From contig DASYUQ010000077.1 of assembly GCA_036001065.1 (NCBI GenBank), positions 12,299-76,298 on the forward strand: 64,000 bases of DNA, given 5' to 3'. A program made the position numbers and the translations under genes. Below, in pieces: positions 1,163 to 32,520 of the stretch. Within the stretch, counting starts at the first letter, position 1, and each line of letters starts with the position of its first letter. Origin of the DNA: Candidatus Methylomirabilota bacterium (GTDB lineage Bacteria; Methylomirabilota; Methylomirabilia; Rokubacteriales; CSP1-6). The notes below the pieces were generated by a model that was given only the letters and a program-made list of their open reading frames with translations, searched no databases and was not told the DNA's origin.

Positions 1163-3040
1163 CTATCCAAGGAAATACCGCCTCGGATCGAAGAGCCGGA
1201 TGAGCCGCAGCTCGTCCGGCGTCGGGGGATCGAAGCGCCGCAGGGCCGGGGCGACCTTCAGCTCCCAGCCGCACGCCTCCCGCGCAGCCCGGACGGCTTC
1301 CGCCTCGGGCGGCCCCGCCAGGACGCCCGTCAGGATCAGCTCGGAGCTCTCGTCGGGCTTCTCGTACACGCCCCGGTCCGACACGACGGTCGTGACGCGC
1401 GTGCCCGGCGCCGTGATGTACGGCGCCTTGTCGACGAAGCGCTCCCGGCTCTGGGCCAGCGTCACGACGACCTCCCGCGCCGACGAGGCGATGTCGTTGG
1501 CTCCGCCCGAGCCCGTGATGTACAGGGTCCCCGGCACGATGGTCGAGTTGATGTTGCCGTGCTTGTCGATCTGCCCCGCCGCCAGCGAGCCGAGGCAGCG
1601 GTTCTCGCTCCCGCCCATGAAGATGCCCATAACGTGGAAGATGTCGGTGAGCATCTTGGACGACGGGAAGTTGCGGAACGAGAAGACGAACGGCTCGGCC
1701 GGGCGCGGCAGATAGCCGACCATCCCCGTCTCGGCCATCAGCTCCACGTCGACGCCGGCGGCCTTCAGCTCGTAGGCGCTGAGCCAGGCGGCCAGGTTCG
1801 AGTTGCCCACGCCGGCCAGGAAGGCGCGATAGCCCCGCGCCCTCACCTTCTCGCCGAGCAGGCGCGCCGCGGCCACCACCATCATCTCCGCTGCGGTGAA
1901 GCCGCCGTCGGCGGGAATGGCGGGCGCGAGCATCTCCAGCTCCCAGACCCAGGCGTCGGTGTGGGCGCGGCCCTTGACCTCCATCAGCCGCTGGTAGCCC
2001 AGCCGGGCGACGTAGGCCCCCTGGTCCGGCACCTCCAGCATCCACTCCTTGATCCAGGCCTCCGCCGTCTCGCGCTTCCGGAAGGCGCGGCGCAGCGTGA
2101 GGATGAAGTCGAGGTCCTCCGCGTATCCCTCCAGCTCGGCGACGTTCATGCCGTACATCCCGGCGGGATGGGCCCCGAACGGCGCCTCCACCACGGCCGC
2201 GACGTACTGTCCCGGCAGTCGCACCAACGGGGCGTGGCGGCGGATGAACTCGGTCGAGACGACCTTCTCGACGCTGACGATGGCGCCCCCGCGGGCGGCC
2301 ATCGCCGCGTAGAAGTTCTCGTTGAGGGGCGCGGCGGCGAGGACGTTGCCGGCGCGGTCGGCGGCCCAGGCGTGAAACAGCGCCACATCCGGCTTGAGCG
2401 AGCGCACGAACCCGACCCTTCGAGCGCCGGCTCCGCCGGCACAACCCTCCGATGGGGAGGTTCGGAGGGGGTCGTGAGGCCCTCTCTGACTAGGGATCTC
2501 GGAGGGGGCCGTAACGTCCGCCCCCTCCGAAAAAAACGGGTCGGGGGCGGCGAGGAAATCGCCATCGCGCGCGTTGTCCTCCTCCATCGAGGAGCCGAGC
2601 AGCGAGCGCGTGGGCATGAAGGGCACGCCCAGCGCGCCCCCGATCAGCCTGAGCGGCATCGTCAGCATCGACCAGTTCTGGACGGCCACCTGGCCGCCGA
2701 GCACGGCGCGGCCGACCAGCGGCTGGGGCGTCGGATAAGGATAGCCCTCGCCGATGAAGGTCGTGACGAGGCGCTCGACGAGGCCGCCCACGACGAACGC
2801 CGTCCAGGGCGAGCCGAACCCGGTCATCGCCAGCGTCCAGCCCGGCCTCCGGCCCCACCACTGGCGGATCACCTCTCGCACCAGCGCGTTCGGGCGGCCG
2901 TGGGCGGCGCCCAGGTAGATGGTCTGGCGCGGCGCGATCAGGCGCCGCACCGCCTCCTCCAGGGTCGTCACCTTGTCCGGCCCTTCGGTGGGCGGCAGCG
3001 CGAGGCGTCGCCCGATCAGCTCCGCGTAGTCCGAGCGCAT
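1163..3040 (-). CDS. Family I CoA-transferase, fused alpha-like + beta-like subunits (GctAB/AtoDA-type), with an about 39-aa in-frame repeat-derived insertion
   Basis: 625-aa ORF. The C-terminal half carries the beta-subunit catalytic-glutamate motif (GGSENRCLGSLAAGQIDKHGNINSTIV). The N-terminal half resembles the alpha subunit. Residues about 168-207 (PFFSEGADVTAPSEIPSQRGPHDPLRTSPSEGCAGGAGARRVG) are encoded by repeat copy A. Confidence 0.65.
   Translation of the reverse strand: MRSDYAELIGRRLALPPTEGPDKVTTLEEAVRRLIAPRQTIYLGAAHGRPNALVREVIRQWWGRRPGWTLAMTGFGSPWTAFVVGGLVERLVTTFIGEGYPYPTPQPLVGRAVLGGQVAVQNWSMLTMPLRLIGGALGVPFMPTRSLLGSSMEEDNARDGDFLAAPDPFFSEGADVTAPSEIPSQRGPHDPLRTSPSEGCAGGAGARRVGFVRSLKPDVALFHAWAADRAGNVLAAAPLNENFYAAMAARGGAIVSVEKVVSTEFIRRHAPLVRLPGQYVAAVVEAPFGAHPAGMYGMNVAELEGYAEDLDFILTLRRAFRKRETAEAWIKEWMLEVPDQGAYVARLGYQRLMEVKGRAHTDAWVWELEMLAPAIPADGGFTAAEMMVVAAARLLGEKVRARGYRAFLAGVGNSNLAAWLSAYELKAAGVDVELMAETGMVGYLPRPAEPFVFSFRNFPSSKMLTDIFHVMGIFMGGSENRCLGSLAAGQIDKHGNINSTIVPGTLYITGSGGANDIASSAREVVVTLAQSRERFVDKAPYITAPGTRVTTVVSDRGVYEKPDESSELILTGVLAGPPEAEAVRAAREACGWELKVAPALRRFDPPTPDELRLIRLFDPRRYFLG
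2420..2537. repeat. GC-rich palindromic repeat element, copy A (forward orientation), inside the CoA-transferase CDS in-frame
   Basis: Sequence: ttcgagcgccggctccgccggc...gatggggaggttcggagggggtcgtgaggccctctctgactagggatctcggagggggccgtaacgtccgccccctccgaaaaaaa. It is near-identical to copy B (32414-32520) and shares 5' and 3' modules with copies C, D, E and F. Internal hairpins: GCCGGCtccGCCGGC and TTCGGAGGGGG...CCCCCTCCGAA. Confidence 0.65.
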
Positions 3041-3046
3041 CTTTCC

Positions 3047-3394
3047 CTAGCGTGGTGAGAAGATGCGGGCCTTGATCCGACCCGGCACCCAGCCGGCCAG
3101 CAGGTGGGCCGCCCGCGCCAGCCGCTCCAGCGACGCGGCGCTCCCCGGCCAGTACTTGAGCAGCAGGGCGCGGTCGACGTAGTTGAGGATCCCGTCGAGG
3201 ATGATCGCCGCCAGCAGGAGATCGTCGAGGTAGCCCAGGAACGGGATGAAGTCGGGGATCAGGTCGATGGGACTGGCCAGGTAGACCGCCGCGGCGGCCA
3301 GGGCGATCTTGGCCGGGCGCGGCAGTACCGGGTCGCCCACGAGCCGGGCGATCAGCCGTACGAGGTCGGGCAGCGCGCGCAGCAGCTCCTTCAC
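3047..3394 (-). CDS. DUF1232 (YkvA-like) small membrane protein
   Basis: 115 aa with the DUF1232 signature PIDLIPDFIPFLGYLDDLLL and hydrophobic segments. Its start ATG overlaps the upstream gene's stop (ATGA). Confidence 0.55.
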   Translation of the reverse strand: MKELLRALPDLVRLIARLVGDPVLPRPAKIALAAAAVYLASPIDLIPDFIPFLGYLDDLLLAAIILDGILNYVDRALLLKYWPGSAASLERLARAAHLLAGWVPGRIKARIFSPR

Positions 3395-5376: not shown

Positions 5377-6368
5377 GAGTGTCCCAACGATAGCACGGCG
5401 AGAACGACCTCCGCGGCGGCGTACGGGTCGAGCTGCCCGTCGGCGACCCGATCGAACGTCTGGGCCAGGTCGCCCGAGCGCAGCATCCGCTCCACGCTGT
5501 CCCTGAACTCCTCCACCAGGAGACTCTTGAACTCGTCGCGCCGCCGGGCCCGGCGCCGTTCGGCCAGCGCGCCCGCTCCCTCCAGAGCTGCGCGGTGGCC
5601 GACGACCGTGTCGAGCAGCTCGGCCATCCCGCCGTTGTTCTGGGCCTCCGTCGCCAGCACGGGGATCTCCCAGTCGACGTCGCGCGGCGCGGTGGGGCTG
5701 GTGGAGGCCAGGTGGGCGGCGAACTTCAGCTCCGCCATCAGGGCGGGGGCGCCGGTGCGGTCGGCCTTGTTGACGACGAAGACGTCGGCCGCCTCCATGA
5801 GGCCCGCCTTCATCGTCTGGATGGCGTCGCCCGACTCCGGCACCAGGATGACCACCGTCGTGTCGGCGAGCTTCATGATGTCGAGCTCGGTCTGGCCCAC
5901 GCCCACGGTCTCGATGAGGATCCACGGAAACCCGAACGCGGCCAGGAGCTTGATGACGTCGCCGGTGGCGCGGGCCAGCCCGCCGAAGGCGCCGCGCGTC
6001 GCCATGCTCCGGATGAAGACGCCGGGGTCGAGCGCGTGGGCCTGCATGCGGATGCGATCGCCCAGCACCGCGCCCCCCGTGAACGGACTCGACGGATCCA
6101 CGGCGACGACGCCGACGGTCTGCTCGCGCGCGCGGAGCAGCGCGGTCAGCCGGTCCACGACTGTCGATTTACCGGCGCCGGGTGGCCCCGTCACGCCCAC
6201 GACGTAGGCGCCCTGCGCCCGCGGATGGATCGCGCGCATGATGGCGGGCACCGCCTCCCTGCGGTTCTCGACGTGGGTGATGAGACGCGCCAGCGCCAGC
6301 CGGTCGCCGGCCAGCATGCGCTCGACGAGCGCGTCGATTTTCTGCGGGCGGGTCTTCGGATCAGGCAT
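5373..6368 (-). CDS. meaB: MeaB/ArgK-family G-protein (B12-dependent acyl-CoA mutase metallochaperone)
   Basis: 331 aa with P-loop GVTGPPGAGKST, VETVGVGQ and NKAD. This is typical MeaB. It is the first gene of a 5-gene minus-strand operon. Confidence 0.8.
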   Translation of the reverse strand: MPDPKTRPQKIDALVERMLAGDRLALARLITHVENRREAVPAIMRAIHPRAQGAYVVGVTGPPGAGKSTVVDRLTALLRAREQTVGVVAVDPSSPFTGGAVLGDRIRMQAHALDPGVFIRSMATRGAFGGLARATGDVIKLLAAFGFPWILIETVGVGQTELDIMKLADTTVVILVPESGDAIQTMKAGLMEAADVFVVNKADRTGAPALMAELKFAAHLASTSPTAPRDVDWEIPVLATEAQNNGGMAELLDTVVGHRAALEGAGALAERRRARRRDEFKSLLVEEFRDSVERMLRSGDLAQTFDRVADGQLDPYAAAEVVLAVLSLGHS

Positions 6369-6384
6369 CGGCCGACGGGTCCCC

Positions 6385-6410
6385 GGAATTGTAGCACTCT
6401 GCTAGTATGG
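6385..6410. promoter_or_regulatory. AT-rich divergent promoter island: extended -10 (TGcTACAAT) on the minus strand for meaB, and TAGTAT -10-like on the plus strand for the small membrane ORF
   Basis: The plus strand reads ggaattgtagcactctgctagtatgg. This is the only AT-rich patch in a GC-rich region. Minus-strand gTGcTACAAT lies about 20 nt upstream of the meaB ATG (6368). No convincing -35 is present. Confidence 0.3.
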
Positions 6411-6417
6411 CCGGCTG

Positions 6418-6789: not shown

Positions 6790-6797
6790 TGACGGCC

Positions 6798-8268: not shown

Positions 8269-8326
8269 CAGGTTTCCCCCGTGACAGCGAAGTGCACTGC
8301 AGTCCAACCCGACACTGATAAACCGA

Positions 8327-10346: not shown

Positions 10347-11099
10347 ATGTATAGGCAGGCAATCCCGCTCCTCGGTCTCGTTCTCTCGCTCGCGGTCACG
10401 AGCCTCGCGGACGCCGAGCCGGTGACGGTCCTGTTTCCGGAGGGCGTGACGCGGGCCTTCCCCATCCTACGCTCCATGGACAACGAAAAGCTCGCCCAGG
10501 GTGACCTCAGCCAGGTCGTGCGGGGTGACAAGGTTTACAGCCGCCTGGTGTTCCGCTTCAAGGACGGTTCGATCTACGACGAGAGCGTCGTCTTCACCCA
10601 GCGCGAAGTATTCACCCTCCTGAGCTACCGCATTGTGCAGAAGGGCCCCTCTTTCCCGGAGACGCTGGAGGCGGCCATCGACCGGGACACCGGACGCTAC
10701 CAGGTCCGCTACCGCGCGGACGAGGACAGCCCCGAAGAGGTCCTCACCGGAAAGTTCGCGCTCCCCGACGACGCCTACAACGGGATGCTCTTCCTGATCG
10801 TGAAGAACCTGCCCGCGCGGGCCGGGGAGACGGTTTCGATAGTGGCGTTCACGCCGAAGCCGCGGGCCGTGAAGATGCAGCTCCTGCCGGTGGCCGAAGA
10901 TCGCATGCTGGTCAGCGACTCGCCGATGCAGGCCACCCGCTATCACATCCGGCCGCAGCTCGGCCTGTTCGCCTCGCTCCTGGTGGCCGACATCCCCGAT
11001 CTCCGCATGTGGATTCTTCCCGGGGAGGCTCCGGCGTTCCTGCGCGCGGAGGGTCCGCTCTACTTCATGGGGCCGGTCTGGAGGATCGACCCCTACTAG
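10347..11099 (+). CDS. Secreted hypothetical protein (signal peptide, no lipobox)
   Basis: Start at the second Met of the track ORF (MYRQAIPLLGLVLSLAVTSLADA|EP). There is no recognisable catalytic motif. The local GC is lower than surrounding DNA. Confidence 0.5.
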   Translation: MYRQAIPLLGLVLSLAVTSLADAEPVTVLFPEGVTRAFPILRSMDNEKLAQGDLSQVVRGDKVYSRLVFRFKDGSIYDESVVFTQREVFTLLSYRIVQKGPSFPETLEAAIDRDTGRYQVRYRADEDSPEEVLTGKFALPDDAYNGMLFLIVKNLPARAGETVSIVAFTPKPRAVKMQLLPVAEDRMLVSDSPMQATRYHIRPQLGLFASLLVADIPDLRMWILPGEAPAFLRAEGPLYFMGPVWRIDPY

Positions 11100-11196
11100 A
11101 TTCCTCGGAGGGGGGCTTCGCCCCCCTTCCGAAACCTCCCCCCAGGATCCATTGCGCGGGCTAAGCCCGCGCTCGAGCCGGCCGCCCCCAGAAACT
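11100..11196. repeat. GC-rich palindromic repeat element, diverged copy F (reverse orientation), between convergent genes
   Basis: cggaggggggcttcgccccccttccgaaacctccccccaggatccattgcgcgggctaagcccgcgctcgag parallels copies D and E (cggagggggcctcggcggccccctccgaggcctcccccagga..gatggcgccggcggagccggcgctcgaa). The terminal hairpin is kept by compensatory changes (GCGCGGGCtaaGCCCGCGC versus GCGCCGGCggaGCCGGCGC). Confidence 0.5.
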
Positions 11197-13017
11197 TCAG
11201 GCGGCTTCCCACAGCCCTTCGGCGACGCCGGCGCTCTTGTAGGCGGCTCGGATGCGATCGAGGTTCTGCGTGAAGAGGAGCCCGATCTTCGCGAACGGCT
11301 CGAAGACAGGACCCTGGCCCTCGATCAGCGGGAAGCTGACATTGGGGAGCTTGCCCCACTGGGCGCGCAGCGCGATGTTCACGGTCGCCAGGCGCGCGTA
11401 GAACTCCTCGCGCTCCTTCGCCGCGCGCTTGACGATCGGCGTGATCAGGCAGTCGATGGTCTGGCGCGCCCGCGCCGCCGCGCCCTCGACGGCCGCCTCC
11501 GCCAGCGGCACCACCGTCACGCCCAGCTCGCCCAGGAACCGCTGCAGGAGCCGACCGACCGATTCCTGGAGCAGCACCTCGGGCAGCCCGACCGTCTTCA
11601 GCTCGCGGTGGCCGATCTGCGCAGCCTCCGCGTACAGCTGGTCGCGCAGCCACTGCACGTAGGCGCGGTTCTCCTCGTCCTTCCACCACTGCTTGATCAT
11701 CTTCTTGCCCCAGTAACGGATGGCCACGTAGTAGAGGTCCCGCTTCCAGAGCTTCTTGGCGATCCCCCGCCAGGAGTAGAACTTGGCCATCGCATCGATC
11801 GCCCCCGTCTGGAGCTCGTAGGGCGACATCCGCCGCGGCTGGTGGACCGTGTGGTGGCCGTCGTAAAAGGACCAGTTCCGGTTGATGACGTACTTGTCGC
11901 CCTTGGCGTAGAGGGTGTCCCAGTCGGGCGAGCCCGGGATCGGCGTGAGGATCATGAACTGCACGGAGTCGATGTCGTGCTTCAGCGCGAAGTCGGCGGT
12001 CGCGTCGATCGTCTCGAGGTCGTCCTCGTCCGAGCCGACCACGAACATGCCGTGGATCCGGATTTGGTGGGCGTGGAAGCGCTCGATCGACCGCTCGATC
12101 TTGGCCAGATCCTGCTTCTTCTGGAAGAGCTTGAGCGTGCGGGGATTGATGGACTCGAACCCCACGTACACATTGAAGCAGTTCGAGTCGCGCATGAGCT
12201 CGAGAAGCTCGGGATCGTCCACCGTCTCGGTGCGCACCTGGGCGCCCCACTGGGGCGTGAGCCCGCGCTCGATCATCCCCCGCAAGAGCTCCTTCACGCG
12301 CTTCTTGTTGGCGGTGAAGATGTCGTCGGCGAAGAAGGTGTAGAGGTTGCCCTTGTGCAGCGTCAGCTCCTCCAGCACCCGCGCGACCGAGTGGGTGCGG
12401 AAGGCGTGACCGTACATCCCCGGCACCGAGCAGAAGGTGCAGGAGAAGGGGCAGCCGCGGGAGGTGGCGATGGAGATGACCCCGCCCGGCTTCCAGCCGG
12501 TGATGAGCTGGTAATCGGGGATCGGGTTCACGTCCAGGTTGGGGATCTTCGGGCGCTCGGGGTTGTGCACGGTCCGGCCGTCCGCCTGGTACGAGAGATT
12601 CTGGATCTTCTCGAACCCCTCGCCCCGCTGGATGGCGTCCACCAGCTCCTGGAAGGCGGCCTCCCCCTCGCCCCGGACGACGAAGTCTCCGTGGGCGAGC
12701 CCTTCGTCGGGCATGAAGCTCGTGTGGGTGCCGCCCAGCACGACGATCCCGCCCGCCTGCCTCACCTGGTCGGCGAGGCGATACGACTGGGGGGCCGTGG
12801 AGGTGATGGCGGAGATGCCCACCAGATCGGCCGCGAGCACCTCCGCCATGTCCACGGGTTGGATGTCCTCGATGTAGACGCGGACGTCGTATCCCTTGCT
12901 CCGCATGATCGTGCCCAAGAGCACGGAGCCGAGCCGCGGAATACACACCCGGGTGTACACGTGGAGGTGCGTGGACTTCGGCTCGACAAACACGAGCTTC
13001 TTGAGCGCTCGCTTCAT
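11197..13017 (-). CDS. Cobalamin (B12)-binding domain radical SAM enzyme (class B) with about 180-aa C-terminal extension
   Basis: Start ATG 13017 (MKRALKKLVFVEP...) with RBS GGGGAG. N-terminal B12-binding fold (DLVGISAITS...IVVLGGTHTSF) and CPFSCTFCSVPG (Cx3Cx2C), then a Trp-rich C-terminal extension reminiscent of DUF4070. Confidence 0.75.
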   Translation of the reverse strand: MKRALKKLVFVEPKSTHLHVYTRVCIPRLGSVLLGTIMRSKGYDVRVYIEDIQPVDMAEVLAADLVGISAITSTAPQSYRLADQVRQAGGIVVLGGTHTSFMPDEGLAHGDFVVRGEGEAAFQELVDAIQRGEGFEKIQNLSYQADGRTVHNPERPKIPNLDVNPIPDYQLITGWKPGGVISIATSRGCPFSCTFCSVPGMYGHAFRTHSVARVLEELTLHKGNLYTFFADDIFTANKKRVKELLRGMIERGLTPQWGAQVRTETVDDPELLELMRDSNCFNVYVGFESINPRTLKLFQKKQDLAKIERSIERFHAHQIRIHGMFVVGSDEDDLETIDATADFALKHDIDSVQFMILTPIPGSPDWDTLYAKGDKYVINRNWSFYDGHHTVHQPRRMSPYELQTGAIDAMAKFYSWRGIAKKLWKRDLYYVAIRYWGKKMIKQWWKDEENRAYVQWLRDQLYAEAAQIGHRELKTVGLPEVLLQESVGRLLQRFLGELGVTVVPLAEAAVEGAAARARQTIDCLITPIVKRAAKEREEFYARLATVNIALRAQWGKLPNVSFPLIEGQGPVFEPFAKIGLLFTQNLDRIRAAYKSAGVAEGLWEAA

Positions 13018-18225: not shown

Positions 18226-18822
18226 TCAGGCGAGCTCCCGGACCAGCGCCCGCGCGCGCTCCAGCTCCTCGGGCGTATTGACGTTCATGAACACGACGGC
18301 GGGGTCGACGTACCGCGCGATCTCCGCCTCATCGATCACGACGACGCGCACCTTGTCGAAGAACCCCACGATCTTCAGCCGCCCGGCCAGCAACCGCTCC
18401 TCCATGTGCGGTAGGCAGCTCTTCTGGTAGGCGGCGTGCATCGTCTCGTACTGATCGCCCACGCGCGGGATCACGACGTCCCCGAGCGGAGCGTGCTCGA
18501 CGACGAGACGGACGACCTCGCGGCGCAGGAACGGCATGTCACAGGCCACGGTGAACGCCGCCCCGCCGGAGGCCGCCTTGAGGCCCGAGTAGATGCCGCC
18601 CAGGGAGCCGTGATCCGGATAGACGTCGGGCACCATGGGCAGGCCCAGGAAGGCATAGAGCTCCGGCATGTTCGTGACGATCAGCAGGTCGTCCACGGCG
18701 CCCGCGAGCACCCCGGCCACGCGCTCGATGATCCGTCGGCCGCCCAGGTCCATCAGCGCCTTGGGTTGCCCGCCCATGCGGGTGCTCTTGCCACCGGCCT
18801 GGATCACGCCCGTGATTTTCAT
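18226..18822 (-). CDS. mobA: Molybdenum cofactor guanylyltransferase
   Basis: Start ATG 18822 (MKITGVIQAGGKSTRMGGQPKAL...). The first 29 aa of the track ORF are a read-through of repeat copy D. Confidence 0.7.
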   Translation of the reverse strand: MKITGVIQAGGKSTRMGGQPKALMDLGGRRIIERVAGVLAGAVDDLLIVTNMPELYAFLGLPMVPDVYPDHGSLGGIYSGLKAASGGAAFTVACDMPFLRREVVRLVVEHAPLGDVVIPRVGDQYETMHAAYQKSCLPHMEERLLAGRLKIVGFFDKVRVVVIDEAEIARYVDPAVVFMNVNTPEELERARALVRELA

Positions 18823-18896
18823 TCGAAGGGGGCCTCGGCGGCCCCCTCCGAGGCCTCCCCCAGGATCGATGGCGCCGGCAAAGCCGACGCTCGAAC
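18823..18896. repeat. GC-rich palindromic repeat element, copy D (reverse orientation), immediately 5' of mobA
   Basis: cgaagggggcctcggcggccccctccgaggcctcccccaggatcgatggcgccggcaaagccgacgctcgaa is about 90% identical to copy E over about 70 bp. Confidence 0.6.
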
Positions 18897-18919
18897 GCTG
18901 GCCTCGCAACAGCGGGGCG

Positions 18920-19531
18920 TCATATCACGCGCACGGCGCCCTGGCGGATCACGCGCGGCGGATCGACGGTGACGTCGAGCACCGTGGAGGCCAGCCCACC
19001 GGCCGTCGGGCCGCCGTCGAGCACCAGCGCGATCGCGCCGTCCAGATCACGCAGCACCGCGTCTGCAGTCGTCGGCGGAGGATCGTCGGACCGGTTCGCG
19101 CTGGGCGCCGTCACCGGTCCGCCGAGCGCTCGGGCCAAGCCGCGCGCGATCGGATGAAGCGAGAGCCGCACGCCGACCGTGCCCGTCCCCGCCGTGACCT
19201 CCACCGGCACCGACGGCTGGGCGGGCAGCACCAGCGTCAGGGCTCCGGGCCAGTGTTGGGCCATGAGTCGGCGGGCGGGCTCGGAGATGACCGCCAGCCG
19301 CTCGACCATCTCCACCGAGTCGACGAGCACCAGCAGCGGCTTCGATTCGGGGCGGCGCTTGACCTCGAAGATCCGCCTCACCGCCCCCCCATCCAGCGCC
19401 GCGGCGCCGAGGCCGTAGAAGGTCTCGGTGGGATAGGCGACCAGACCGCCCTTCTTCAGCGCGGCCGCCCCGCGCTGGAGCGCAGCGGCGTCAGGGTTCG
19501 CGGGATCGACCTTCAGGACCTCCGTGCCCAT
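18920..19531 (-). CDS. tsaC: L-threonylcarbamoyladenylate synthase (YrdC/Sua5 family)
   Basis: YPTETFYGLGAAA and the YrdC fold, 203 aa. Confidence 0.7.
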   Translation of the reverse strand: MGTEVLKVDPANPDAAALQRGAAALKKGGLVAYPTETFYGLGAAALDGGAVRRIFEVKRRPESKPLLVLVDSVEMVERLAVISEPARRLMAQHWPGALTLVLPAQPSVPVEVTAGTGTVGVRLSLHPIARGLARALGGPVTAPSANRSDDPPPTTADAVLRDLDGAIALVLDGGPTAGGLASTVLDVTVDPPRVIRQGAVRVI

Positions 19532-22234: not shown

Positions 22235-23920
22235 TCAGTGGCGGAAGTGACGGATGCCGGTGAAGACCATCGCCACCCCGCGCTCGTCGGCCGCCGCGAT
22301 GACCTCCTGATCCCGGAGCGAGCCGCCCGGCTGGATGACGGCCGTGACCCCGGCCTGAGCCACGACGTCGAGACCGTCGCGGAACGGGAAGAACGCGTCG
22401 GAGGCGCAGACGCTGCCTTCGGTGCCGAGCCCGGCCTCGCGCGCCCGCATGACGGCCAGGCGCGCGGAGTCCAGGCGATTCATCTGCCCGGCCCCGACGC
22501 CGACCACCTGATCGCCTGTGGTCAGCACGATGGCGTTCGATTTGACGTGCTTGGCCACCCGCCAGGCGAAGCCGAGCGCGGCCATCTCGTCGGGAGTGGG
22601 CGCGCGCCGGGTGACCGTCTTGAGGGTCTTCTCATCGAGGTCGACCGCGTCCGCCGCCTGCACCAGCAGACCACCGAGCACGCTCCGGTACTCGACGAGC
22701 CGCGGGAGCCGTTCGCACGGTACCTGGAGCACACGGCACTTCTTCTTCGTCCGCCTGAGCTCCTCCAGCGCCTCGGGAACGAAGGCGGGCGCGAAGAGGA
22801 TCTCGACGAAGATGCCGGCGAGCTCCCGGACGACGGCCGGGTCGAAGGCGCGGTTGACGCCGACGATCCCGCCGTAGATCGATACCGGATCCGACGCTTT
22901 CGCCTTGGCCATGGCGGCGCCGGCGGTGGCGGCGACCGCGGCACCGCACGGGTTGGTGTGCTTGACGACGACGGCCGCCGGCTCGGCGAACTCGAGCAAC
23001 AGCCCCAGGGCCGCCGAGAGGTCGAGCAGATTGTTGTAACCGAGCTCGGGCCCGTGCAGCTGCCGCATGGCGCCGAGCCCGAAGGGGAACCCGCCGAGGA
23101 GGCGGTAGAACGCCGCCGCCTGGTGGGGGTTCTCGCCGTACCTCAGACCGAGCGCCCGCTCGGCCTCGAGCCGCAGCCGCTCCGGAAACTGCTCCGTTCG
23201 AGCGCCGGCTTCGCCGGCGCAATCCGTCCTGGGGGAGGTCTCGGAGGGGACCGTCGCGCCCTCCGGGCGCGCCTGTGGAGTCGCCCCCTCCGACCGGGAT
23301 GGGAGGCGAAGCCCCCCTCCGAGGGAGGCGGCCCCCTCCGAAGAAAAATGAGCGGCGATCGCCGCGTCGTATTCGGCCGTCCGCCGGAACGCTTGCTGGG
23401 CCAGACGAGCGCGCGTCTCGTCGCTAAGCGCGCCGCCGCTGGCCCGCAGCTCTCCCAGGACCTCCGCGTACTGCGAGGGATCGGTGACGACGGCCACGCT
23501 CGCGTGGTTCTTGGCGGCGGCGCGAATCATGGCCGGACCCCCGATGTCGATCTGCTCGATCGCCTCGGCGCGCGTGACGCCGGGCCGCGCCACCGTGGCC
23601 TCGAACGGGTAGAGCGCCACGACGACGAGGTCGATCGGCGGGATCCCGTGCTGCTCGAGCGCGGCCGCATGCTCGGGGGAGTCCCGGCGGGCCAGGATGC
23701 CTCCGTGAATCTTGGGATGGAGCGTCTTGACACGACCGTCGAGCATCTCGGGAAACCCGGTGACGTCGGCGACCTCGCGCACCGGCACCCCCGAGTCCCG
23801 GAGCAGCCGAGCCGTCCCGCCCGTCGAGAGGAGCTCCACCCCCAGCTCCCGGAGGGCTCTGGCCAGCTCGACCACACCGGTCTTGTCGTGAACGCTCACG
23901 AGCGCACGCCGGACCTTCAT
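22235..23920 (-). CDS. purH: Bifunctional AICAR transformylase / IMP cyclohydrolase, with repeat-derived about 50-aa insertion in the interdomain linker
   Basis: MGS-like N-domain (VRRALVSVHDKTG...) and AICARFT C-domain. The linker segment SSEGAASLGGGLRLPSRSEGATPQARPEGATVPSETSPRTDCAGEAGARTEQ is encoded by repeat copy C. Confidence 0.85.
   Translation of the reverse strand: MKVRRALVSVHDKTGVVELARALRELGVELLSTGGTARLLRDSGVPVREVADVTGFPEMLDGRVKTLHPKIHGGILARRDSPEHAAALEQHGIPPIDLVVVALYPFEATVARPGVTRAEAIEQIDIGGPAMIRAAAKNHASVAVVTDPSQYAEVLGELRASGGALSDETRARLAQQAFRRTAEYDAAIAAHFSSEGAASLGGGLRLPSRSEGATPQARPEGATVPSETSPRTDCAGEAGARTEQFPERLRLEAERALGLRYGENPHQAAAFYRLLGGFPFGLGAMRQLHGPELGYNNLLDLSAALGLLLEFAEPAAVVVKHTNPCGAAVAATAGAAMAKAKASDPVSIYGGIVGVNRAFDPAVVRELAGIFVEILFAPAFVPEALEELRRTKKKCRVLQVPCERLPRLVEYRSVLGGLLVQAADAVDLDEKTLKTVTRRAPTPDEMAALGFAWRVAKHVKSNAIVLTTGDQVVGVGAGQMNRLDSARLAVMRAREAGLGTEGSVCASDAFFPFRDGLDVVAQAGVTAVIQPGGSLRDQEVIAAADERGVAMVFTGIRHFRH
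23199..23349. repeat. GC-rich palindromic repeat element, long copy C (forward orientation), in-frame inside purH
   Basis: The 5' module ttcgagcgccggcttcgccggcgcaatccgtcctgggggaggtctcggagggga matches the reverse complement of copy E's 3' end (A and C share the core TTCGAGCGCCGGCTYCGCCGGC and GGGGAGG-YCGGAGGGG). The 3' module ggccccctccgaagaaaaa matches copies A and B. Confidence 0.6.
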
Positions 23921-23924
23921 TCGA

Positions 23925-24539
23925 TCACCATCCCACGATCACTCTCCTGCCGACGATCCTAAGCCGCCCTTCCGCGAAGAGCCGCACCGCCTGCGGATAG
24001 AGCCGGTGCTCCTCGGCGAGGATCCGTGCCGCCAGCGTCTCCTCGGTGTCGTCGGGCTGCACGGGGACGCTCGATTGTAAGATGATCGGGCCGGTGTCCA
24101 CGCCTTCGTCGACGAAGTGGACGGTGGCGCCCGAGATCTTCACGCCATGGTCGAGCGCCTGGCGCTGGGCGTTCAGCCCGGGGAAGGCCGGCAGCAGCGA
24201 GGGGTGGATGTTCATGATCCGCCCCGTCCACGCCCGGACGAACGCCGGTCCGAGGACACGCATGAAGCCGGCCAGGCAGACGAGCCCGACCTGATGCGCC
24301 TCGAGGACCTTGGTGATGGCGGCGTCGTAGGCCTCGCGGGCGCCGAAGTCCTTGGGGTTCAGGAGCACGGCCGGCACCCCCCGCTCGGCGGCGATCTTCA
24401 GCGCCCGGGCGCCCTCGCGATCGGAGACGACCACGGCGACCCGGGCCGGAAAGTCGGTGCGCGCGCTGGCGTCGAGGATCGCCTGGAGGTTCGAGCCGCG
24501 ACCGGAGGCGAGCACGCCGACCCGGAGAAGCTCCTTCAC
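23925..24539 (-). CDS. purN: Phosphoribosylglycinamide formyltransferase
   Basis: VGVLASGRGSNLQAIL...HPSLLPAFPG. Confidence 0.8.
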   Translation of the reverse strand: MKELLRVGVLASGRGSNLQAILDASARTDFPARVAVVVSDREGARALKIAAERGVPAVLLNPKDFGAREAYDAAITKVLEAHQVGLVCLAGFMRVLGPAFVRAWTGRIMNIHPSLLPAFPGLNAQRQALDHGVKISGATVHFVDEGVDTGPIILQSSVPVQPDDTEETLAARILAEEHRLYPQAVRLFAEGRLRIVGRRVIVGW

Positions 24540-25834
24540 GCGGCGTCGCGCTCCTTGGGGGCGGCGGCGTGAAGGGCGCAGATCGGGCAGCGTGGCACCT
24601 GTCGCATGATGGCCGAGTCCCGCGGGAAGAAGCGGGCCAGGGACCAGTCGAGCGCCACCTGGAGTTGCTTGCGGACGCCGACCAACTTCAGGAGGTGGAG
24701 CGCGTTCCAGAAGAGCCAGGCCGGGTAGCCGGAGAACCGGAACCCCATGACCTCGACCACGGCGTCCTTCTCGCCCAGCGACACCAGCATCCCGCGCGGC
24801 GCAAAGTCGATCGGCCGCAGCGCGCGGCCGGCGAGGTCGGCCACGATGTTCTCGGCGACCAGGCGCCCGTGGGCCAGCGCCGCCGGGATGATGGGAATGG
24901 AGGCTTGGGGCTTGCCCTCGATGCTGACCGCGTCCCCGGCGCCGTAGACCTCCGGATGGCCGGGAATCTGGAGGAAGCTGTTGACGACGATCCGCCCCAG
25001 TCGATCGTGGCCGACGGGGAGGTGGGCCAGTGCCGGGTGGCCCTTGACGCCCGCGGCCCAGACGATCAGGCCCGCCGCGATCGACTCGCCACCCCCTACC
25101 TCGACGACGCCGGGCAGCACCCGCGTGACGCGCGTTCGGGTCTTGACCTCGATGCCCTCGCGGTGCAGCCGCCGGTGCGCTCGTTCCGCGAGCGCGGGAT
25201 GGACGCCGCGCAGGATCTCCTCGCCCGCCTCGAGGACGACCAGGCGGTAGTCGCCGGCCTCGATGCCGCGGTAGCGCGGCACCACATACGAATGGAAGAA
25301 GTCGTGCAGCTCCGCCACCAGCTCGACGCCGGTGTAGCCGCCGCCAACGACGCAGACCGTCAGCATGCGCCGACGGACGTCGGGATCGGGCTCGTGATCG
25401 GCGTGCTCGGCGAGGTCGATCAGATGATCGCGCAGGAGGATGGCGTCGTCGAGGTGCTTGTACGGGAGCGCGTGCTCCTCGACGCCGGGGATCCCGAAGC
25501 TCGGCGTCGTTCCGCCGAGCGCGATCACCAGACGGTCATAGGCCACGGTCCCCTCGGCGAGGACGACCCGACGCGCGGCCAGATCGATGTCGAGCACCTG
25601 GTCGCGGCGGAAGCGGAATCGGCGGGCCCCGCGGAGGTCGCGGATCGGTTGGATGATGTGGCGCGGCTCGACGAGCGAGGAGGCCACCTGGGGCAGCAGC
25701 GGGGTGAACAGCAGATAGTTGCGGTCGCTCACCAGGAGCAGCTCGACATCCTGCCGGGGGCCCAGCCGGCGATCCAGCACGCGGATCGCCTCCAGCCCGG
25801 CGAAGCCGCCGCCCAGCACCGCGATGCGGCTCAC
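24536..25834 (-). CDS. ndh: Type II NADH:quinone oxidoreductase (NDH-2)-family flavoprotein, embedded in the pur operon
   Basis: GTG start 25834 (VSRIAVLGGGFAGLEA...). It has two Rossmann GxGxxG motifs (the second is VVGGGYTGVE). GTGA overlap with the purM stop and ATGA overlap with the purN start. Confidence 0.6.
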   Translation of the reverse strand: MSRIAVLGGGFAGLEAIRVLDRRLGPRQDVELLLVSDRNYLLFTPLLPQVASSLVEPRHIIQPIRDLRGARRFRFRRDQVLDIDLAARRVVLAEGTVAYDRLVIALGGTTPSFGIPGVEEHALPYKHLDDAILLRDHLIDLAEHADHEPDPDVRRRMLTVCVVGGGYTGVELVAELHDFFHSYVVPRYRGIEAGDYRLVVLEAGEEILRGVHPALAERAHRRLHREGIEVKTRTRVTRVLPGVVEVGGGESIAAGLIVWAAGVKGHPALAHLPVGHDRLGRIVVNSFLQIPGHPEVYGAGDAVSIEGKPQASIPIIPAALAHGRLVAENIVADLAGRALRPIDFAPRGMLVSLGEKDAVVEVMGFRFSGYPAWLFWNALHLLKLVGVRKQLQVALDWSLARFFPRDSAIMRQVPRCPICALHAAAPKERDAA

Positions 25835-26862: not shown

Positions 26863-26877
26863 CGGCGGCGCTAGCTC

Positions 26878-26952
26878 AGTCGGAGGGGGCCTCGGCGGCC
26901 CCCTCCGAGGCCTCCCCCAGGAAGGGATGGCGCCGGCGGAGCCGGCGCTCGA
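26878..26952. repeat. GC-rich palindromic repeat element, copy E (reverse orientation), in the purF-purM intergenic spacer
   Basis: agtcggagggggcctcggcggccccctccgaggcctcccccaggaagggatggcgccggcggagccggcgctcgaa. Its 3' 22 nt are the exact reverse complement of copy A's 5' 22 nt (ttcgagcgccggctccgccggc). Confidence 0.6.
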
Positions 26953-27000
26953 AACAGCGAGCAGTGGCCGGAGTAAGCTGGCGCCATTCGCCAACAACCG

Positions 27001-28413
27001 CTAGTCGTCGAACAGCCTGAGCTGCGGGCTCGGCTCGGGCGCGATCCCCACCCGGTAATTGCCGGTGAAGCAGGCGTGGCAGAAGTGGCTGGGGTCCGCG
27101 CCGGTGGCCTTCAGCATGCCCTCGAGCGAGAGGTATCCGAGCGAATCGGCGCCGACATACCGGCGGATCTCTTCGACGTTGTGACTGGCGCCGATCAGCT
27201 CCCTCCGGGTCGGGGTGTCGATGCCGTAGTAGCAGGGCCACTTGATCGGCGGCGACGAGATCCGCATGTGGACCTCGCGGGCGCCGGCGTTCCGGATCAT
27301 CCTCACGATCTTGCGGCTGGTGGTGCCGCGGACGATCGAGTCGTCGACGACCACGACCCGCCGCCCCTCCAGCATCTCCCGCATCGGGTTGAGCTTCACC
27401 TTGACGCCGAAGTGGCGGATGCCCTGCTTGGGCTCGATGAACGTGCGGCCCACGTAGTGGTTGCGGATGAGGCCCATCTCGTAGCGCACCCCCGACTGCT
27501 CGGAGAAGCCGAGCGCCGCGCTGGTGCCCGAGTCCGGCACCGGGATGACGATGTCGGCCTCCACCGGGTGCTCGCGAGCCAGCTCCCGCCCGAGCGCCTT
27601 GCGGACGGTGTGCACGTTGCGGCCCCAGAGGACGGAGTCGGGCCGCGCGAAGTAAACGTACTCGAAGACGCAGTGCAGGCGCTCCCCGGCGGGGGCGTAG
27701 CGGCGAGATTGCACGCCGGCCTCCGAGATGACGACGATCTCCCCCGGCTCGACCTCGCGCTCGTACTTCGCCTCGATGAGGTCGAGCGCGCACGTCTCCG
27801 AGGCGACCACCCACGAGTCGGTGAGCCTCCCCAGTCCCAGCGGCCGGAAGCCATTCGGGTCGCGCACGGCGTACATGGCGTCCGGCGTGAGGATCAGCAG
27901 CGAGTATGCCCCCGTCACCTGCCGGAGCGCATGCGGGAGTTGCTCCGCCAGCGTCCCGGCGGGGGCGCGCGCGAGGAGGTGGAGGATGACCTCGGTGTCG
28001 GAGTTGGACTGGAAGATGGCGCCCTCCCGCTCCATCTCCCTCCGCAGCGCCTCGGCGTTGGTCAGGTTGCCGTTGTGGGCGATGGCGATCGGGCCGCGGG
28101 CGGTGTTGGCCGTGATGGGCTGGGCGTTGCGGAGCTTCGAGGAGCCGGCCGTCGAGTAGCGGACGTGACCGATGGCGCGGTGGCCGGGAAGCCGGCGCAG
28201 GCGCTCGGGGCCGAAGACGTCGGCGACCCATCCCATCGCCTTCTCGGTGTGGAAGCTCTGCCCGTCGGTCGCGGCGATCCCCGCGGACTCCTGCCCGCGG
28301 TGCTGGAGCGCGTAGAGACCGAGGTAGGCGACGTTGGCGGCCTCCGGATGATTCCAGATGCCGAACACCCCACACTCGTCGTGGAACTTGTCGTCACGCC
28401 AGGTGACGCTCAA
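27001..28413 (-). CDS. purF: Amidophosphoribosyltransferase
   Basis: Short propeptide, then CGVFGIW (Ntn Cys), a PRTase domain, and C-terminal Fe-S cysteines. Confidence 0.85.
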
Positions 28414-30616: not shown

Positions 30617-30630
30617 TCCGCCTCCAGCGG

Positions 30631-31344
30631 TTACCGCTTCAAGAAGCCGCCGTCCTCGACGAGGCTGCCGAGGAGGGACTGGAAGATCAGCAGCCCGTCG
30701 GTGCTACCCATCGCCGGCTCGGCCGCCCGCTCGGGATGCGGCATGAGTCCCAGCACGGTCCCCTCCTCGTTGACGACGCCGGCGATGCTCTCCAGGGAGC
30801 CGTTGGGATTGGCCGCCCGCGTGACCTGGCCTTCGGCCGTCGCGTAGCGGAACACGATCTGGCCGTTCTTCCTGAGCTTCGCCAGCGCCCCGGCGTCGGC
30901 ATAGTACTTGCCCTCGCCGTGGGAAATCGGCATCGTCAACACCTGCCCCACGCGCAGACCCCGAGTGAAGGGCGTGTCCACGTTCTCGACCACGAGATGC
31001 GTCTGCTGGCAGCGATACTGCAGGCACTCGTTGCGCATGAGCGCGCCGGGCAGGAGGCCGGCCTCGCACAGGATCTGAAACCCGTTGCAGGAGGCGAGCA
31101 CATGCCCGCCGCGCGCGACGAAGTCACCCAGCGCCTCCACCACCGGCGAGCGGCCGGCCACGGCGCCGGCTCTCAAGTAATCGCCGTAGGAGAAGCCGCC
31201 CGGCAGGATGACGCAGTCGAAGTCATCGAGGTTCCGGTCGCGGTGCCAGATGTACTTGACCGGCTGCCGCAGGACTTCCGAGACCACGTAGTGGAAGTCG
31301 CAGTCGCTCCAAGTCCCCGGGAACACGACCACGCCGAATCTCAT
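30631..31344 (-). CDS. purQ: Phosphoribosylformylglycinamidine synthase glutaminase subunit
   Basis: [16 protein letters not shown]..., a class I glutamine amidotransferase. Confidence 0.85.
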
Positions 31345-31414
31345 GGAGTCGATTCTCCTCTCGAGGCAGGACTATCTTACCGCTGCCAGGCGGCACCGAG
31401 CAAGCGAAGCGCGC

Positions 31415-31648
31415 TCACTCGATCGTGTACTCCTCGAGCAGGGGGTTGGCGAGGAGCCGGCGGCACATCTCGTCGGCGCGGGCGCGGGCCTGCGCGGCCG
31501 TGGGAGCCTCCAGCTCGACCTCGATCACCTTGCCCACCCGCAGGTCGGCCACGTCGGTGAAGCCGAGGCCCATCAACGCGCGCTTGACGGCCGCGCCCTG
31601 AACGTCGAGGATGCCCGGCTTGAGCCGGACGAGCACGCGCACTTTCAT
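31415..31648 (-). CDS. purS: Phosphoribosylformylglycinamidine synthase subunit PurS
   Basis: Start ATG 31648 (MKVRVLVRLKPGILDVQG...), about 77 aa. ATGA overlap with the purC stop. Confidence 0.75.
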   Translation of the reverse strand: MKVRVLVRLKPGILDVQGAAVKRALMGLGFTDVADLRVGKVIEVELEAPTAAQARARADEMCRRLLANPLLEEYTIE

Positions 31649-32388
31649 GTCCGCGGCGCGCCGCCTTCGACGAGACGCCGGAACACTTCCTGGTAGGCGT
31701 CCTCCACGCCCCCCAGATCCTGGCGGAAGCGGTCCTTGTCCAGCTTGGCGCGGGTCCGGGCGTCCCACAGGCGGCAGGTGTCGGGTGAGATTTCGTCGCC
31801 CAGGTAGAGCCGGCCGCGGGCACGCCCGAACTCGAGCTTGAAGTCGACCAGCAGGAGCCCCCGGCGCGCCATGTGCGGCCGGAGTACGCGATTGATCCGG
31901 AGGGCCATCCGCCGGAGCCAGGCCAGCTCCCGGGGTGTGGCCAGCCCCAGCAGCCGCACGTGGTCGTCGGTGATCATGGGATCACCGAGCGGATCCGACT
32001 TGTAGTAGAGCTCCACGATCGGCTGCTTGATCGGAGTCCCTTCCTCGAACCCGGTGCGCTTGGCCAGGCTGCCGGCCACGATGTTGCGGACGATCGTCTC
32101 GATGCGGATGATCTCGAGCCGCCGGCAGAGCATCTCGCGGTCGGAGAGGGTGGCCAGATAGTGGGTGGGCACCCCCGCCCGCTCGAGCCGCTGGAACAGC
32201 GCCGCCGACATCCGGTTGTTCACCACGCCCTTGCCGACGATGGTCCCGCGCTTGAGCGCGTTGAAGGCGGTGGCGTCGTCCTTGAAGTACTGGATGATCA
32301 GATCCGGCCGGCTGGTCGCGTAGACGATCTTCGCCTTGCCTTCGTAGAGCTTCTCGCCCTGCTCGACCTCCGGAATCGCCCTCTTCAT
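31645..32388 (-). CDS. purC: Phosphoribosylaminoimidazole-succinocarboxamide synthase
   Basis: Start ATG 32388 (MKRAIPEVEQGEKLYEGKAKIVY...). Confidence 0.85.
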   Translation of the reverse strand: MKRAIPEVEQGEKLYEGKAKIVYATSRPDLIIQYFKDDATAFNALKRGTIVGKGVVNNRMSAALFQRLERAGVPTHYLATLSDREMLCRRLEIIRIETIVRNIVAGSLAKRTGFEEGTPIKQPIVELYYKSDPLGDPMITDDHVRLLGLATPRELAWLRRMALRINRVLRPHMARRGLLLVDFKLEFGRARGRLYLGDEISPDTCRLWDARTRAKLDKDRFRQDLGGVEDAYQEVFRRLVEGGAPRT

Positions 32389-32413
32389 CGCTCTACCCTC
32401 TATTTCGCGCTTT

Positions 32414-32520
32414 TCGAGCGGCGGCTTTGCCGCCGCGATCCTATGGGGTGGTTCGGAGGGGGCCGCGAGGCCCCCTCTGACTAGGGATCCCGGAGGGGGC
32501 GGCGCCCCCCTCCGACAAAA
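32414..32520. repeat. GC-rich palindromic repeat element, copy B (forward orientation), overlapping the purB 3' end
   Basis: ttcgagcggcggctttgccgccgcgatcctatggggtggttcggagggggccgcgaggccccctctgactagggatcccggagggggcggcgcccccctccgacaaaa. It is near-identical to copy A. The 5' hairpin has compensatory changes (GCGGCGGCtttGCCGCCGC versus GCCGGCtccGCCGGC). Confidence 0.65.

Follow-up and report, generated by a model that had tools for sequence, protein, structure and literature searches.

A dispersed palindromic family of two-hairpin repeats common in genomes of Rokubacteria

The window analyzed here is a stretch of 64,000 nt from a Candidatus Methylomirabilota bacterium (Rokubacteriales, CSP1-6; assembly GCA_036001065.1, contig DASYUQ010000077.1, positions 12,299-76,298 of the forward strand), and all window positions below are counted from its first base. 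It contains six copies (A to F) of a GC-rich palindromic repeat, which had been proposed in an original prediction made from the sequence alone. The repeat is a unit of two different hairpins, both of which are kept by compensatory base changes, and it is common in the genomes of Rokubacteria (order Rokubacteriales, phylum Methylomirabilota), where a given site may hold a copy in one lineage and lack it in another. Three of the six window copies are translated, two inside proteins (A and D) and one as a C-terminal tail (F). The six repeats probably represent a dispersed palindromic mosaic family of the repetitive extragenic palindrome/bacterial interspersed mosaic element (REP/BIME) type, with an in-frame behavior similar to that of the Rickettsia palindromic elements (RPE).

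The kind of repeat is already known, but the family itself appears to be previously undescribed. Rokubacteria, which abound in soil and the subsurface and are uncultured, have unusually large genomes with 8-17% of non-coding DNA, and the paper describing their genomes mentions transposases and no repeat family (PMC5712423). A full-text literature search turned up no account of any repeat family in Rokubacteria/Methylomirabilota, and a comparison with Rfam (release 15, 4227 models) gave no match in the whole window at gathering thresholds and none at E <= 1 in its 2-33 kb part. An order-wide element of 73 nt accounts for a part of the intergenic DNA of these bacteria.

Structure of the Repeat Unit and the Six Copies in the Window

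The basic unit was ~73 nt long with ~75% G+C. Drawn with hairpin 1 first, it started with TTCGA, followed by hairpin 1, AATC with a few variable bases, the G-rich motif (T)GGGGGAGG, a gap of 1-2 nt and, finally, hairpin 2. Hairpin 1 had the form GCGCCGGC-TYN-GCCGGCGC (8 bp with a 3-nt loop), and hairpin 2 the form TCGGAGGGGGCC-loop-GGCCCCCTCCGA (12 bp with a 3-6-nt loop). In an alignment of 68 canonical units the conserved limits were TTCGAG at one side and ...CCCTCCGA(G) / TCCGA(G) at the other, in agreement with the shared 5' module that had been predicted. The predicted A-rich 3' module, in contrast, does not belong to the element: the A-rich tail (GAAAAAAA and similar) was present only in copies A, D and F, where it consisted of host Phe/Leu codons (TTT/TTC/TTG on the minus strand). 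Hairpin 2 was nested or repeated in some copies (one to three modules), which is what had been taken for a variable middle, and whole units were also doubled or joined to other small hairpins. Mosaic variants were seen in which an extra hairpin was added, the 3' hairpin was of an alternative type, hairpin 1 was doubled or hairpin 2 was nested, and tandem arrays were found as well. The unusual length that had been predicted is not supported: the unit is made of two hairpins of ordinary REP size, and the longer copies are nested composites.

A covariance model, R1, was built from the 68 canonical units, which came from many genomes, and was run on the window unfiltered. It produced exactly six full-length matches with scores of 62-89 bits, all with E <= 3e-10, each at or within a few bases of a predicted copy. 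The remaining matches, all below 30 bits in the 128 kb of searched strand, were palindromic self-hits or noise. The copies were as follows:

Copy A: 2419..2530, + strand; R1 match 2419-2489, 62.3 bits; hairpin 1 at 2424-2442 with one mismatch, spacer containing TGGGGAGG, composite nested hairpin 2 at 2461-2530; fold z = -4.6
Copy B: 11105..11177, - strand; R1 74.3 bits; canonical single unit of the GGAAGGGGGGC subfamily
Copy C: 18823..18895, - strand; R1 88.8 bits; canonical unit
Copy D: 23197..23341, + strand; R1 match 23197-23266, 70.0 bits; hairpin 1, spacer and three hairpin-2 modules, one with a nested GC hairpin
Copy E: 26880..26953, - strand; R1 86.0 bits; canonical unit
Copy F: 32413..32515, + strand; R1 match 32413-32480, 71.0 bits; hairpin 1 followed by a double hairpin 2

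Both orientations were thus present, as predicted, but the labels had been wrong: the plus strand carries A, D and F and the minus strand B, C and E, instead of A-C being forward and D-F reverse. Copies A and F belonged to the same derived subfamily with a double hairpin 2 and the spacer CTCTGACTAGGGATC. No member of the family was found at 34-64 kb of the window.

Hairpin 1 was also seen in combination with other modules. An alternative 3' hairpin, GGTGGGGGG..CGGGGGGAGCGGCGC.GCTCCCCCCG..GATCAAT, followed hairpin 1 in L024, L043, L048, L049 and L071, and an extra hairpin, CAGGGAGGAGCGCGCCGTCAGGCGCGCGACGACCG, was located between the G-rich spacer and hairpin 2 in L013, L029, L031, L086, L097 and L102. 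Such alternative and extra modules are probably sister families with one module in common. In one subfamily (L028, L040, L092, L108, L110, L111, L118) a 5' extension, TAGGAGCGCGTCGGAGTAACCGCCG, recurred before hairpin 1, 25 nt upstream of TTCGAG. Beyond its core, copy E was bounded by an imperfect inverted repeat, GGCGCCAGCTTA...TGAGCTAGCGCC, and its flank (window 26954-27000) contained CTTACTCCGG, related to the 5' extension but in the opposite orientation. Because of the 5' extension and the outer inverted repeat of copy E, some copies may be longer than the 73-nt core.

Occurrence in Rokubacteria

A scan with an exact hairpin-1 pattern, TTCGAGCGCCGGCNNNGCCGGC (19 bases), in one genome per GTDB species recovered at least 120 loci. 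Among the matches listed, ~100 carried the labels Candidatus Rokubacteria, Rokuibacteriota, Methylomirabilota or Methylomirabilia, while ~16 came from unrelated phyla and had the hairpin-1 pattern only, that is, were chance matches. In the 0.9 Mb made up of the scan loci and four further contigs, model R1 gave 116 + 32 matches, and ~25 of the copies had not been seeded by the pattern. Several subfamilies coexisted within one metagenome-assembled genome (MAG) and recurred across MAGs. The density amounted to 6 copies per 64 kb in the window and to ~35 per Mb for the unseeded copies in the loci.

The recovery of so many copies elsewhere bears on the possibility that the six repeats are nothing but chance similarity of GC-rich palindromes or one segmental duplication. 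Such a chance origin could draw on the base composition of the window (~70% G+C throughout), on the loci from unrelated phyla with the hairpin-1 pattern only, and on the fact that hairpin 1 alone (TTCGAGCGCCGGC, up to 2 mismatches) was not enriched, with 11 occurrences in the window against 11.3 expected from shuffles. The hairpin-2 arm TCGGAGGGGGC (up to 1 mismatch), on the other hand, occurred 18 times in the window against 7.1 +/- 3.3 times in shuffled sequence, none of 100 shuffles reached 18, and the genuine matches all fell inside the six elements. The full model, moreover, separated the six copies at 62-89 bits from the rest at below 30 bits, and more than 100 further copies were present elsewhere. 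Each of the six copies is flanked by genes unrelated to those at the others, so that a segmental duplication does not apply. Thus, neither of the two outcomes that could have undone the original prediction, a lack of further copies or a single duplication, was found, and chance or duplication is extremely improbable as the source of the family.

Full canonical elements of 74-88 bits were also present in five sequences with non-Rokubacteria labels, namely L015, L020, L046, L051 and L083 (labels of the MAGs: Deferrimicrobiaceae, Alphaproteobacteria, Acidoferrum, Acidobacteria and Limnocylindria). The soil sample that yielded L051 was also the source of several Rokubacteria MAGs. These five contigs may be mis-binned Rokubacteria rather than an indication of a wider host range, and the element could help to flag such contigs as a binning marker.

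Conservation of the Pairing

The pairing was assessed in the 116 matches aligned to model R1, an alignment that favors the structure, as it was fitted by the model. Standard pairs occupied 94% of the cells, compared to 87.8% in shuffles and to 40-53% after sliding the 3' partner. Two-sided changes were observed in 13 of 20 pairs (6.8 +/- 1.4 in shuffles), and the number of compensatory cells reached 96 against 14 +/- 3 in shuffles, none of 500 of which reached that number. The compensation was also visible by eye: in hairpin 1, copy B had GCGCGGGC/GCCCGCGC and copy F GCGGCGGC/GCCGCCGC as the two arms; one subfamily had TCGAAGG.../...CCTTCGA. Minimum free energy (MFE) folds recovered both hairpins, with z = -2.6 to -4.6 for most copies and an MFE of ~-45 to -60 kcal/mol for whole elements in 86-106-nt stretches with short flanks.

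Placement Relative to Genes

A context census was made for 102 de-duplicated copies with both hairpins, the flanking genes being called from the G+C content at third codon positions (GC3) and from open frames. The distribution was as follows:

Co-directional genes, transcript meeting hairpin 2 first: 30 copies
Co-directional genes, transcript meeting hairpin 1 first: 11 copies (binomial p = 0.004 against 30)
Convergent genes: 13 copies
Divergent genes: 3 copies (p = 0.02 against convergent)

The ends of the element were placed close to the ends of genes. In 29 of 43 cases in which a gene ran into the hairpin-2 end, its stop codon was 0-8 nt away, while the hairpin-1 end was placed more loosely, at 5-50 nt. 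Of the 12 genes that left the hairpin-2 end, 8 had their first in-frame start codon 0-12 nt past ...CCCTCCGA. Many such starts opened recognizable N-termini, such as MRILVIEDE, MKIYNTMTR and those of ABC ATPases (from a longer listing that was not de-duplicated). Copies at 17-23 nt from the start mostly had their own GGGAGG, but the purM copy did not.

Copies B, C and E obeyed these rules in the window. Copy B fills the gap between convergent genes, with its hairpin-2 end 5 nt from the TAG (11097-11099) of the plus-strand gene and its hairpin-1 end 19 nt from the stop (11197-11199) of a B12-binding radical-SAM gene. Copy C lies between the stop of a Sua5/TsaC-like gene (18920) and a mobA-like gene, and its hairpin 2 directly abuts the ATG of the latter (18822-18820), with GGGGGAGG 2 nt upstream of hairpin 2. 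Copy E separates purF (stop at 27001-27003) from purM, whose ATG (26862-26860) it precedes by 17 nt. The convergent-gene copy is therefore B and not F, to which that position had been assigned: copy F overlaps the 3' end of purB, with the purC ATG beside it at 32388.

A fixed TGA stop codon as the insertion target was considered and rejected: copy F starts exactly at the native TGA, yet the distances ranged from 0 to 8 nt overall. In L009 (7847-7990) a canonical element ended ~12 nt before a tRNA gene (GGGGTGTAGCTC...GGACTCCAAATCC...TTCGAATCC, as judged by eye).

Copies Translated in Frame

All copies apart from F had been predicted to sit in transcribed operon space, but A and D are located inside open reading frames (ORFs) and F forms a C-terminal tail, so that half of the window copies are translated. 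The unit is suited to this: 64-68 of the 68 canonical copies were free of stop codons in each of the six frames, compared to about 70% per frame in shuffles.

Copy D is in frame in purH (gene 22235-23920, minus strand; stop-to-stop frame 22235-23938(-), GC3 = 0.89). The window PurH is complete, with the translation running straight through copy D and both PF02142 and PF01808 kept. Its residues 3-192 and 245-561 aligned to residues 10-196 and 209-523 of PurH from M. tuberculosis (PDB 3zzm), and in this alignment the 52 residues of copy D (193-244) take the place of a linker of ~12 residues between the IMP cyclohydrolase and AICAR transformylase domains. PurH of related metagenomic lineages (75-88% identity) had 510-559 aa; many of them contained ...SEGAS.APSETSPR..AG(K/E)AGAR... 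at the insert site and some a short linker only.

Copy A is in frame within the first CoA_trans domain of a fused CoA-transferase of 625 aa (gene 1163-3040, minus strand). The PF01144 match to residues 25-286 was full-length and spanned the insert, which encodes ...FFSEGADVTAPSEIPSQRGPHDPLRTSPSEGCAGGAGARR... A 'Methylomirabilota bacterium' MAG at NCBI encodes a protein with 100% identity to that of the window, annotated as a single coding sequence of 625 aa. The orthologs had a modal length of 593 aa without the insert, while variants of 605-625 aa had element peptides at the same site. An AlphaFold model of the CoA-transferase (20-sequence alignment) had a mean pLDDT of 47.6, so that the insert could not be placed on the fold. 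All length variants of the PurH and CoA-transferase orthologs keep the frame, which argues for translation of the region and against a split gene.

In the case of copy F the purB frame (minus strand, 33808-32441) runs into the element, which supplies the last 24 codons, SEGGAAPSGIPSQRGPRGPLRTTP, and the TAG at 32443-32441. The ADSL_C domain of PurB ends at residue 428 of 455, and PurB of L124 ends with ...FRRVGLL* exactly where copy F begins in the window. Junction-spanning peptides can be predicted for PurH, PurB and the CoA-transferase, for example AAHFSSEGAASLGGGLR and AGLLSEGGAAPSGIPSQR.

Internal in-frame copies were found in two host genes only, representing two independent events among 113 copies before de-duplication. 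C-terminal tails were more common (7 of 43 genes converging on the hairpin-2 end, for example in methionine-aminopeptidase-like and SDR-like proteins) and used all three frames. A search with a profile of the element peptide (HMMER) found 69 proteins among 1.84 billion representatives, mostly short spurious ORFs over intergenic copies; the remainder included a PurH, a VanZ-like protein with an internal insert, and tails of NuoE-like and CoA_transf_3 proteins. A word-indexed protein search with a 47-aa element peptide gave no match, probably owing to its low-complexity words.

These data also bear on the idea that the translated copies are selected as protein, i.e., as a recurrent flexible linker or tag with its own function, the non-coding copies being incidental. 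The recurrence of ...SEGAS.APSE.SPR..AG(K/E)AGAR... at one position in numerous orthologs of PurH and of the CoA-transferase, the presence of the peptide in the VanZ-like protein and in several C-terminal tails, and the preservation of frame by insertions and deletions would fit. Against this stand the two independent internal insertions, the use of all three frames in the tails, the predominance of spurious ORFs among the profile matches and the modal orthologs without insert; furthermore, it is the DNA palindromes that are conserved rather than the amino acids. Selection at the protein level is accordingly very improbable.

After the RPEs of Rickettsia and scattered REPs, the family is a second clear case in which palindromic DNA is translated in frame as part of essential enzymes (PurH, PurB, CoA-transferase). 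In the annotation of MAGs it also gives rise to short ORFs that are spurious and to C-terminal extensions.

Copy A is bracketed by an 8-nt inverted repeat, CCCGACCC/GGGTCGGG, at 2410-2418 and 2538-2545. Both halves represent host codons (Asp-Pro and Arg-Val), and the same residues are present in insert-free orthologs. The insertion site of copy A may itself have been a small palindrome. As a general rule, insertion into a pre-existing hairpin was rejected, since the flanks of 75 copies showed no excess of inverted repeats.

Filled and Empty Sites and the Mode of Copying

The comparison of related genomes showed sites in different states. L121, which had 98% DNA identity to the window over 15 kb and therefore belongs to the same species, carried orthologous copies at C, D, E and F. 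The mobA-upstream element together with its 5' flank was involved in a 123-nt tandem duplication, with two copies in L121 (14966-15160) and one in the window (18818-18942), while the purH copy of L121 had a different set of hairpin-2 modules and the compensated hairpin 1 GCGCGGGC/GCCCGCGC. The element thus marks structural variation at the strain level. In L124 (PurH 79% identical) the purH site was filled and the C, E and F sites were empty, with spacers of 10 nt between purF and purM and of 20 nt between the Sua5 gene and mobA, and PurB lacked the tail. No copy was present in the 21.5 kb of L123, including an empty C site. The purH copy of L125 was a perfect canonical unit (93 bits) in a PurH only 80% identical, which implies that it was inserted recently, underwent gene conversion or has its palindromes under selection. 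Finally, the derived variant of A and F also occupied a third locus, unlinked to the other two, in a close relative (L118), and a composite sequence of 110 nt has therefore been copied to new sites.

Signatures of cut-and-paste transposition were sought in 75 independent copies. No excess of target-site duplications was found for k = 2-6 at offsets of 0-7 on both sides; the best case was a dinucleotide with 9 observed against 4.3 expected. The ends of the unit, TTCGAGCGCCGGC and TCGGAGGGGGCC, agreed as a terminal inverted repeat at just 8 of 13 positions, as judged by eye, and inverted repeats in the flanks were no more common than in permuted pairs.

These results are relevant to the original designation of the repeats as MITE/REP-like, of which the REP-like part holds, the copies being dispersed palindromes in both orientations and in large number, while the MITE part is not supported. 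A MITE (miniature inverted-repeat transposable element) would be a deletion derivative of an insertion sequence (IS), moved by a DDE transposase that recognizes terminal inverted repeats and duplicates the target site. The size of 73-150 nt, the high copy number, the two orientations, the filled and empty sites, the outer inverted repeat of copy E and the T(T/C)CGAG at both ends are all compatible with such an origin. It is nevertheless unlikely: there was no 2-6 bp direct-repeat excess at any offset, the ends match too poorly and the flanks show no excess of inverted repeats, and no IS-like partner was present in the sequence examined.

The repeats could also be a non-mobile cis-regulatory cassette, inherited vertically and kept alike by selection together with gene conversion, which might serve as a terminator, mRNA stabilizer, ribosome-binding site or protein-binding site. 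The very high conservation across the whole order, the stability of orthologous copies between strains, the precise placement at stops and starts with an orientation biased to transcription, and the perfect palindromes retained by the in-frame purH copy of L125 speak for it. However, one 73-nt sequence is shared by loci that are not related, also within coding regions, and is found in either orientation; relatives have empty sites; copies are found in tandem and nested; the derived composite variant (A, F, L118) is present at three unlinked loci; and there is no U-tract, although the genome has terminators with a hairpin and a T-run (e.g., at 37827-37850). So many sites are reachable only through copying, and a vertically inherited cassette is therefore an improbable explanation.

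Comparison With Known Repeat Systems

Most REPs follow ORFs, their neighbors being unidirectional or convergent genes; they may provide stop codons, and some are intragenic (PMC3733652). The GTAG- and CGTC-tagged REP superfamilies were described by Di Nocera et al. (2013; PMC3733652), and REPIN-RAYT systems have been reported as well (PMC3116915; RAYT, REP-associated tyrosine transposase). The Rokubacteria element resembles the REP/BIME of enterobacteria and pseudomonads in being a short GC-rich imperfect palindrome present in many copies and mosaic combinations, without terminal inverted repeats or target-site duplications. Its copies are likewise situated just downstream of ORFs, among co-directional or convergent and rarely divergent neighbors (here 41, 13 and 3 copies, respectively), with ends that touch or supply stops, with occasional in-gene copies, and with coexisting subfamilies that persist across related species. 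In contrast to either a single REP or a REP doublet, it has a fixed pair of different hairpins with a G-rich spacer similar to a Shine-Dalgarno (SD) sequence, and its host is an uncultured phylum for which no REP/RAYT account was found and in which a RAYT was not found in the limited sequence searched. REP families are usually species- or genus-specific, unlike the Rokubacteria element, which is conserved across a whole order. Among the hallmarks of BIMEs are binding by IHF, DNA gyrase or Pol I and the stabilization of mRNA.

The likeness to RPEs concerns behavior: a palindromic repeat is present both in intergenic DNA and in frame in conserved genes whose protein is kept, several related lineages have a copy at the same site, and the unit is free of stops. 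RPEs are AT-rich, 100-150 bp long and confined to Rickettsiales (PMC10969869; PMC3733652; in part general background), in contrast to the unit of ~75% G+C and 73 nt in Rokubacteria, in which in-frame copies are a small minority (2 of 113). By base composition and host phylum homology to RPEs is very unlikely, and the likeness is regarded as one of behavior and not of descent.

The Correia MITEs of Neisseria and the mycobacterial interspersed repetitive units (MIRU) are comparable as small operon repeats at the stops and starts of flanking genes, and both can be co-transcribed and alter the expression of neighbors. Correia elements have terminal inverted repeats and a TA duplication, both absent here, and MIRUs are tandem minisatellite-like units with small ORFs, in contrast to the palindromic hairpins of the present family. 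Integron attC sites and CRISPR were rejected on anatomy: the neighbors are housekeeping genes, there is no R'/R'' core and there is no array.

Possible Mechanism of Copying and Function

The element would have been copied, now or formerly, in a duplicative way by a trans-acting enzyme recognizing hairpin DNA, as RAYT does for REP, with no cut-and-paste DDE transposase involved. An enzyme of this type is favored because the signatures of cut-and-paste are lacking and it is the hairpins with their immediate feet that are conserved. The copies would persist owing to the little harm that they do, and inside genes they would survive only where an additional 25-50 residues rich in Gly/Ala/Ser/Pro can be tolerated, i.e., in linkers, loops and C-termini.

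Two RNA-level roles can be envisaged from the placement. In the more common orientation a transcript would carry two strong stem-loops right after the stop, with no U-tract, which may protect the 3' end of the mRNA against 3' exonucleases; alternatively, they may act as an operon-internal barrier to decay or as a termination barrier different from canonical intrinsic termination. Roles of this kind have been shown for REP/BIME. An intrinsic terminator proper was rejected: neither orientation has a U-tract, the base that follows the last hairpin is G/C-rich, and T/A runs do border A, D and F, but as coding sequence or on the wrong side. In the rarer orientation hairpin 2 would bring the single-stranded GGGGGAGG to the AUG, forming a 'split' SD that replaces the ribosome-binding site displaced by the element. 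The motif was mostly unpaired between the hairpins in the fold of copy C, and with hairpin 2 closed the distance from SD to AUG was 2-14 nt, mostly 5-12 nt. A split SD would explain how mobA, cysS, response regulators and ABC ATPases are expressed despite there being no room for a separate SD. Initiation from a split SD/AUG has been demonstrated experimentally for genes 38 and 25 of phage T4 (PMC3014915). The arrangement here is similar, with GGGGGAGG, 1-2 nt, a stable hairpin, 0-12 nt and AUG, and, once the hairpin is closed, an SD-to-AUG distance of ~5-12 nt, which agrees with that in T4; in contrast to T4, the putative split SD would be on a repeated, portable element and not at a single gene. 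Together with the strict placement at stops and starts, an SD-like motif held near the AUG leads to the prediction that a mobile repeat may replace the translation signal that its own insertion had displaced.

A further-reaching version, which we regard as doubtful, is that the element has been domesticated into an orientation-dependent portable gene boundary, one 73-nt cassette that sets transcript ends and translation starts at hundreds of junctions. If so, it would provide a protective or terminating double stem-loop after the stop when inserted one way and a complete split ribosome-binding site with GGGGGAGG when inserted the other way, and the absence of stops in six frames would be a selected property that allows the element to land on coding sequences and to extend them.

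A number of observations weigh against a REP/BIME-type family of this behavior, or against parts of it. The weakest step is mobilization in trans, since no enzyme for it turned up: two probes, a RAYT and an IS200 TnpA, gave no tblastn match in the 0.9 Mb from ~100 genomes, no transposase was present among the window ORFs scanned, and the genes located between inverted copies were housekeeping genes of the rsmE/prmA and mnmA/atpF/atpH type. No terminal GTAG/CGTC tag was present in the 68 units, CGTC being confined to a GTCGA loop of one hairpin-2 subfamily; because of this lack the family is called REP/BIME-like rather than a member of the REP superfamilies. The orthologous copies are old and stable, with C, D, E and F shared with a strain of 98% identity and purH occupied across lineages at 75-80% protein identity, which does not speak for ongoing transposition, and a part of what is seen could be due to gene conversion between copies. 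The densities of the window and of the unseeded copies suggest a few hundred copies per genome of 6-8 Mb, as an extrapolation and not a count. G·U and A·C pairs numbered 35 and 24, with a bulged-A subfamily set aside, which does not single out the transcribed strand; since the counts favor neither strand, the constraint may act on DNA hairpins or on RNA of either orientation. The argument for 3' protection and for a split SD, finally, is one of position and geometry.

Other Features of the Window

On the minus strand the window contains a Bacillus-like pur operon, purB-C-S-Q-L-F-M-N-H-D, and its further core genes include pnp, ribF, infB, proS, ispG, cdsA and argJ. No tRNA or tmRNA was found in the window. 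An oxidoreductase of 432 aa of the pyridine-nucleotide disulphide type (NDH-2-like) is encoded between purM and purN (~24536-25834, minus strand). The same protein (PF07992, PF22366) is present in L121 (8066-9364), whereas L123 and L124 lack it in their pur operons.

A hairpin, TCCCCCTGTAATTACAGGGGGA, followed by AAGAGGTTTTTGGG, is found on the minus strand at 37827-37850, shortly downstream of the end of the ribF-like gene (37886). The region 37827-37890 was rejected as a family member, since it scored 18 bits only and has a different hairpin with a T-run. The hairpin and T-run, AT-richer than their surroundings, look like a canonical intrinsic terminator.

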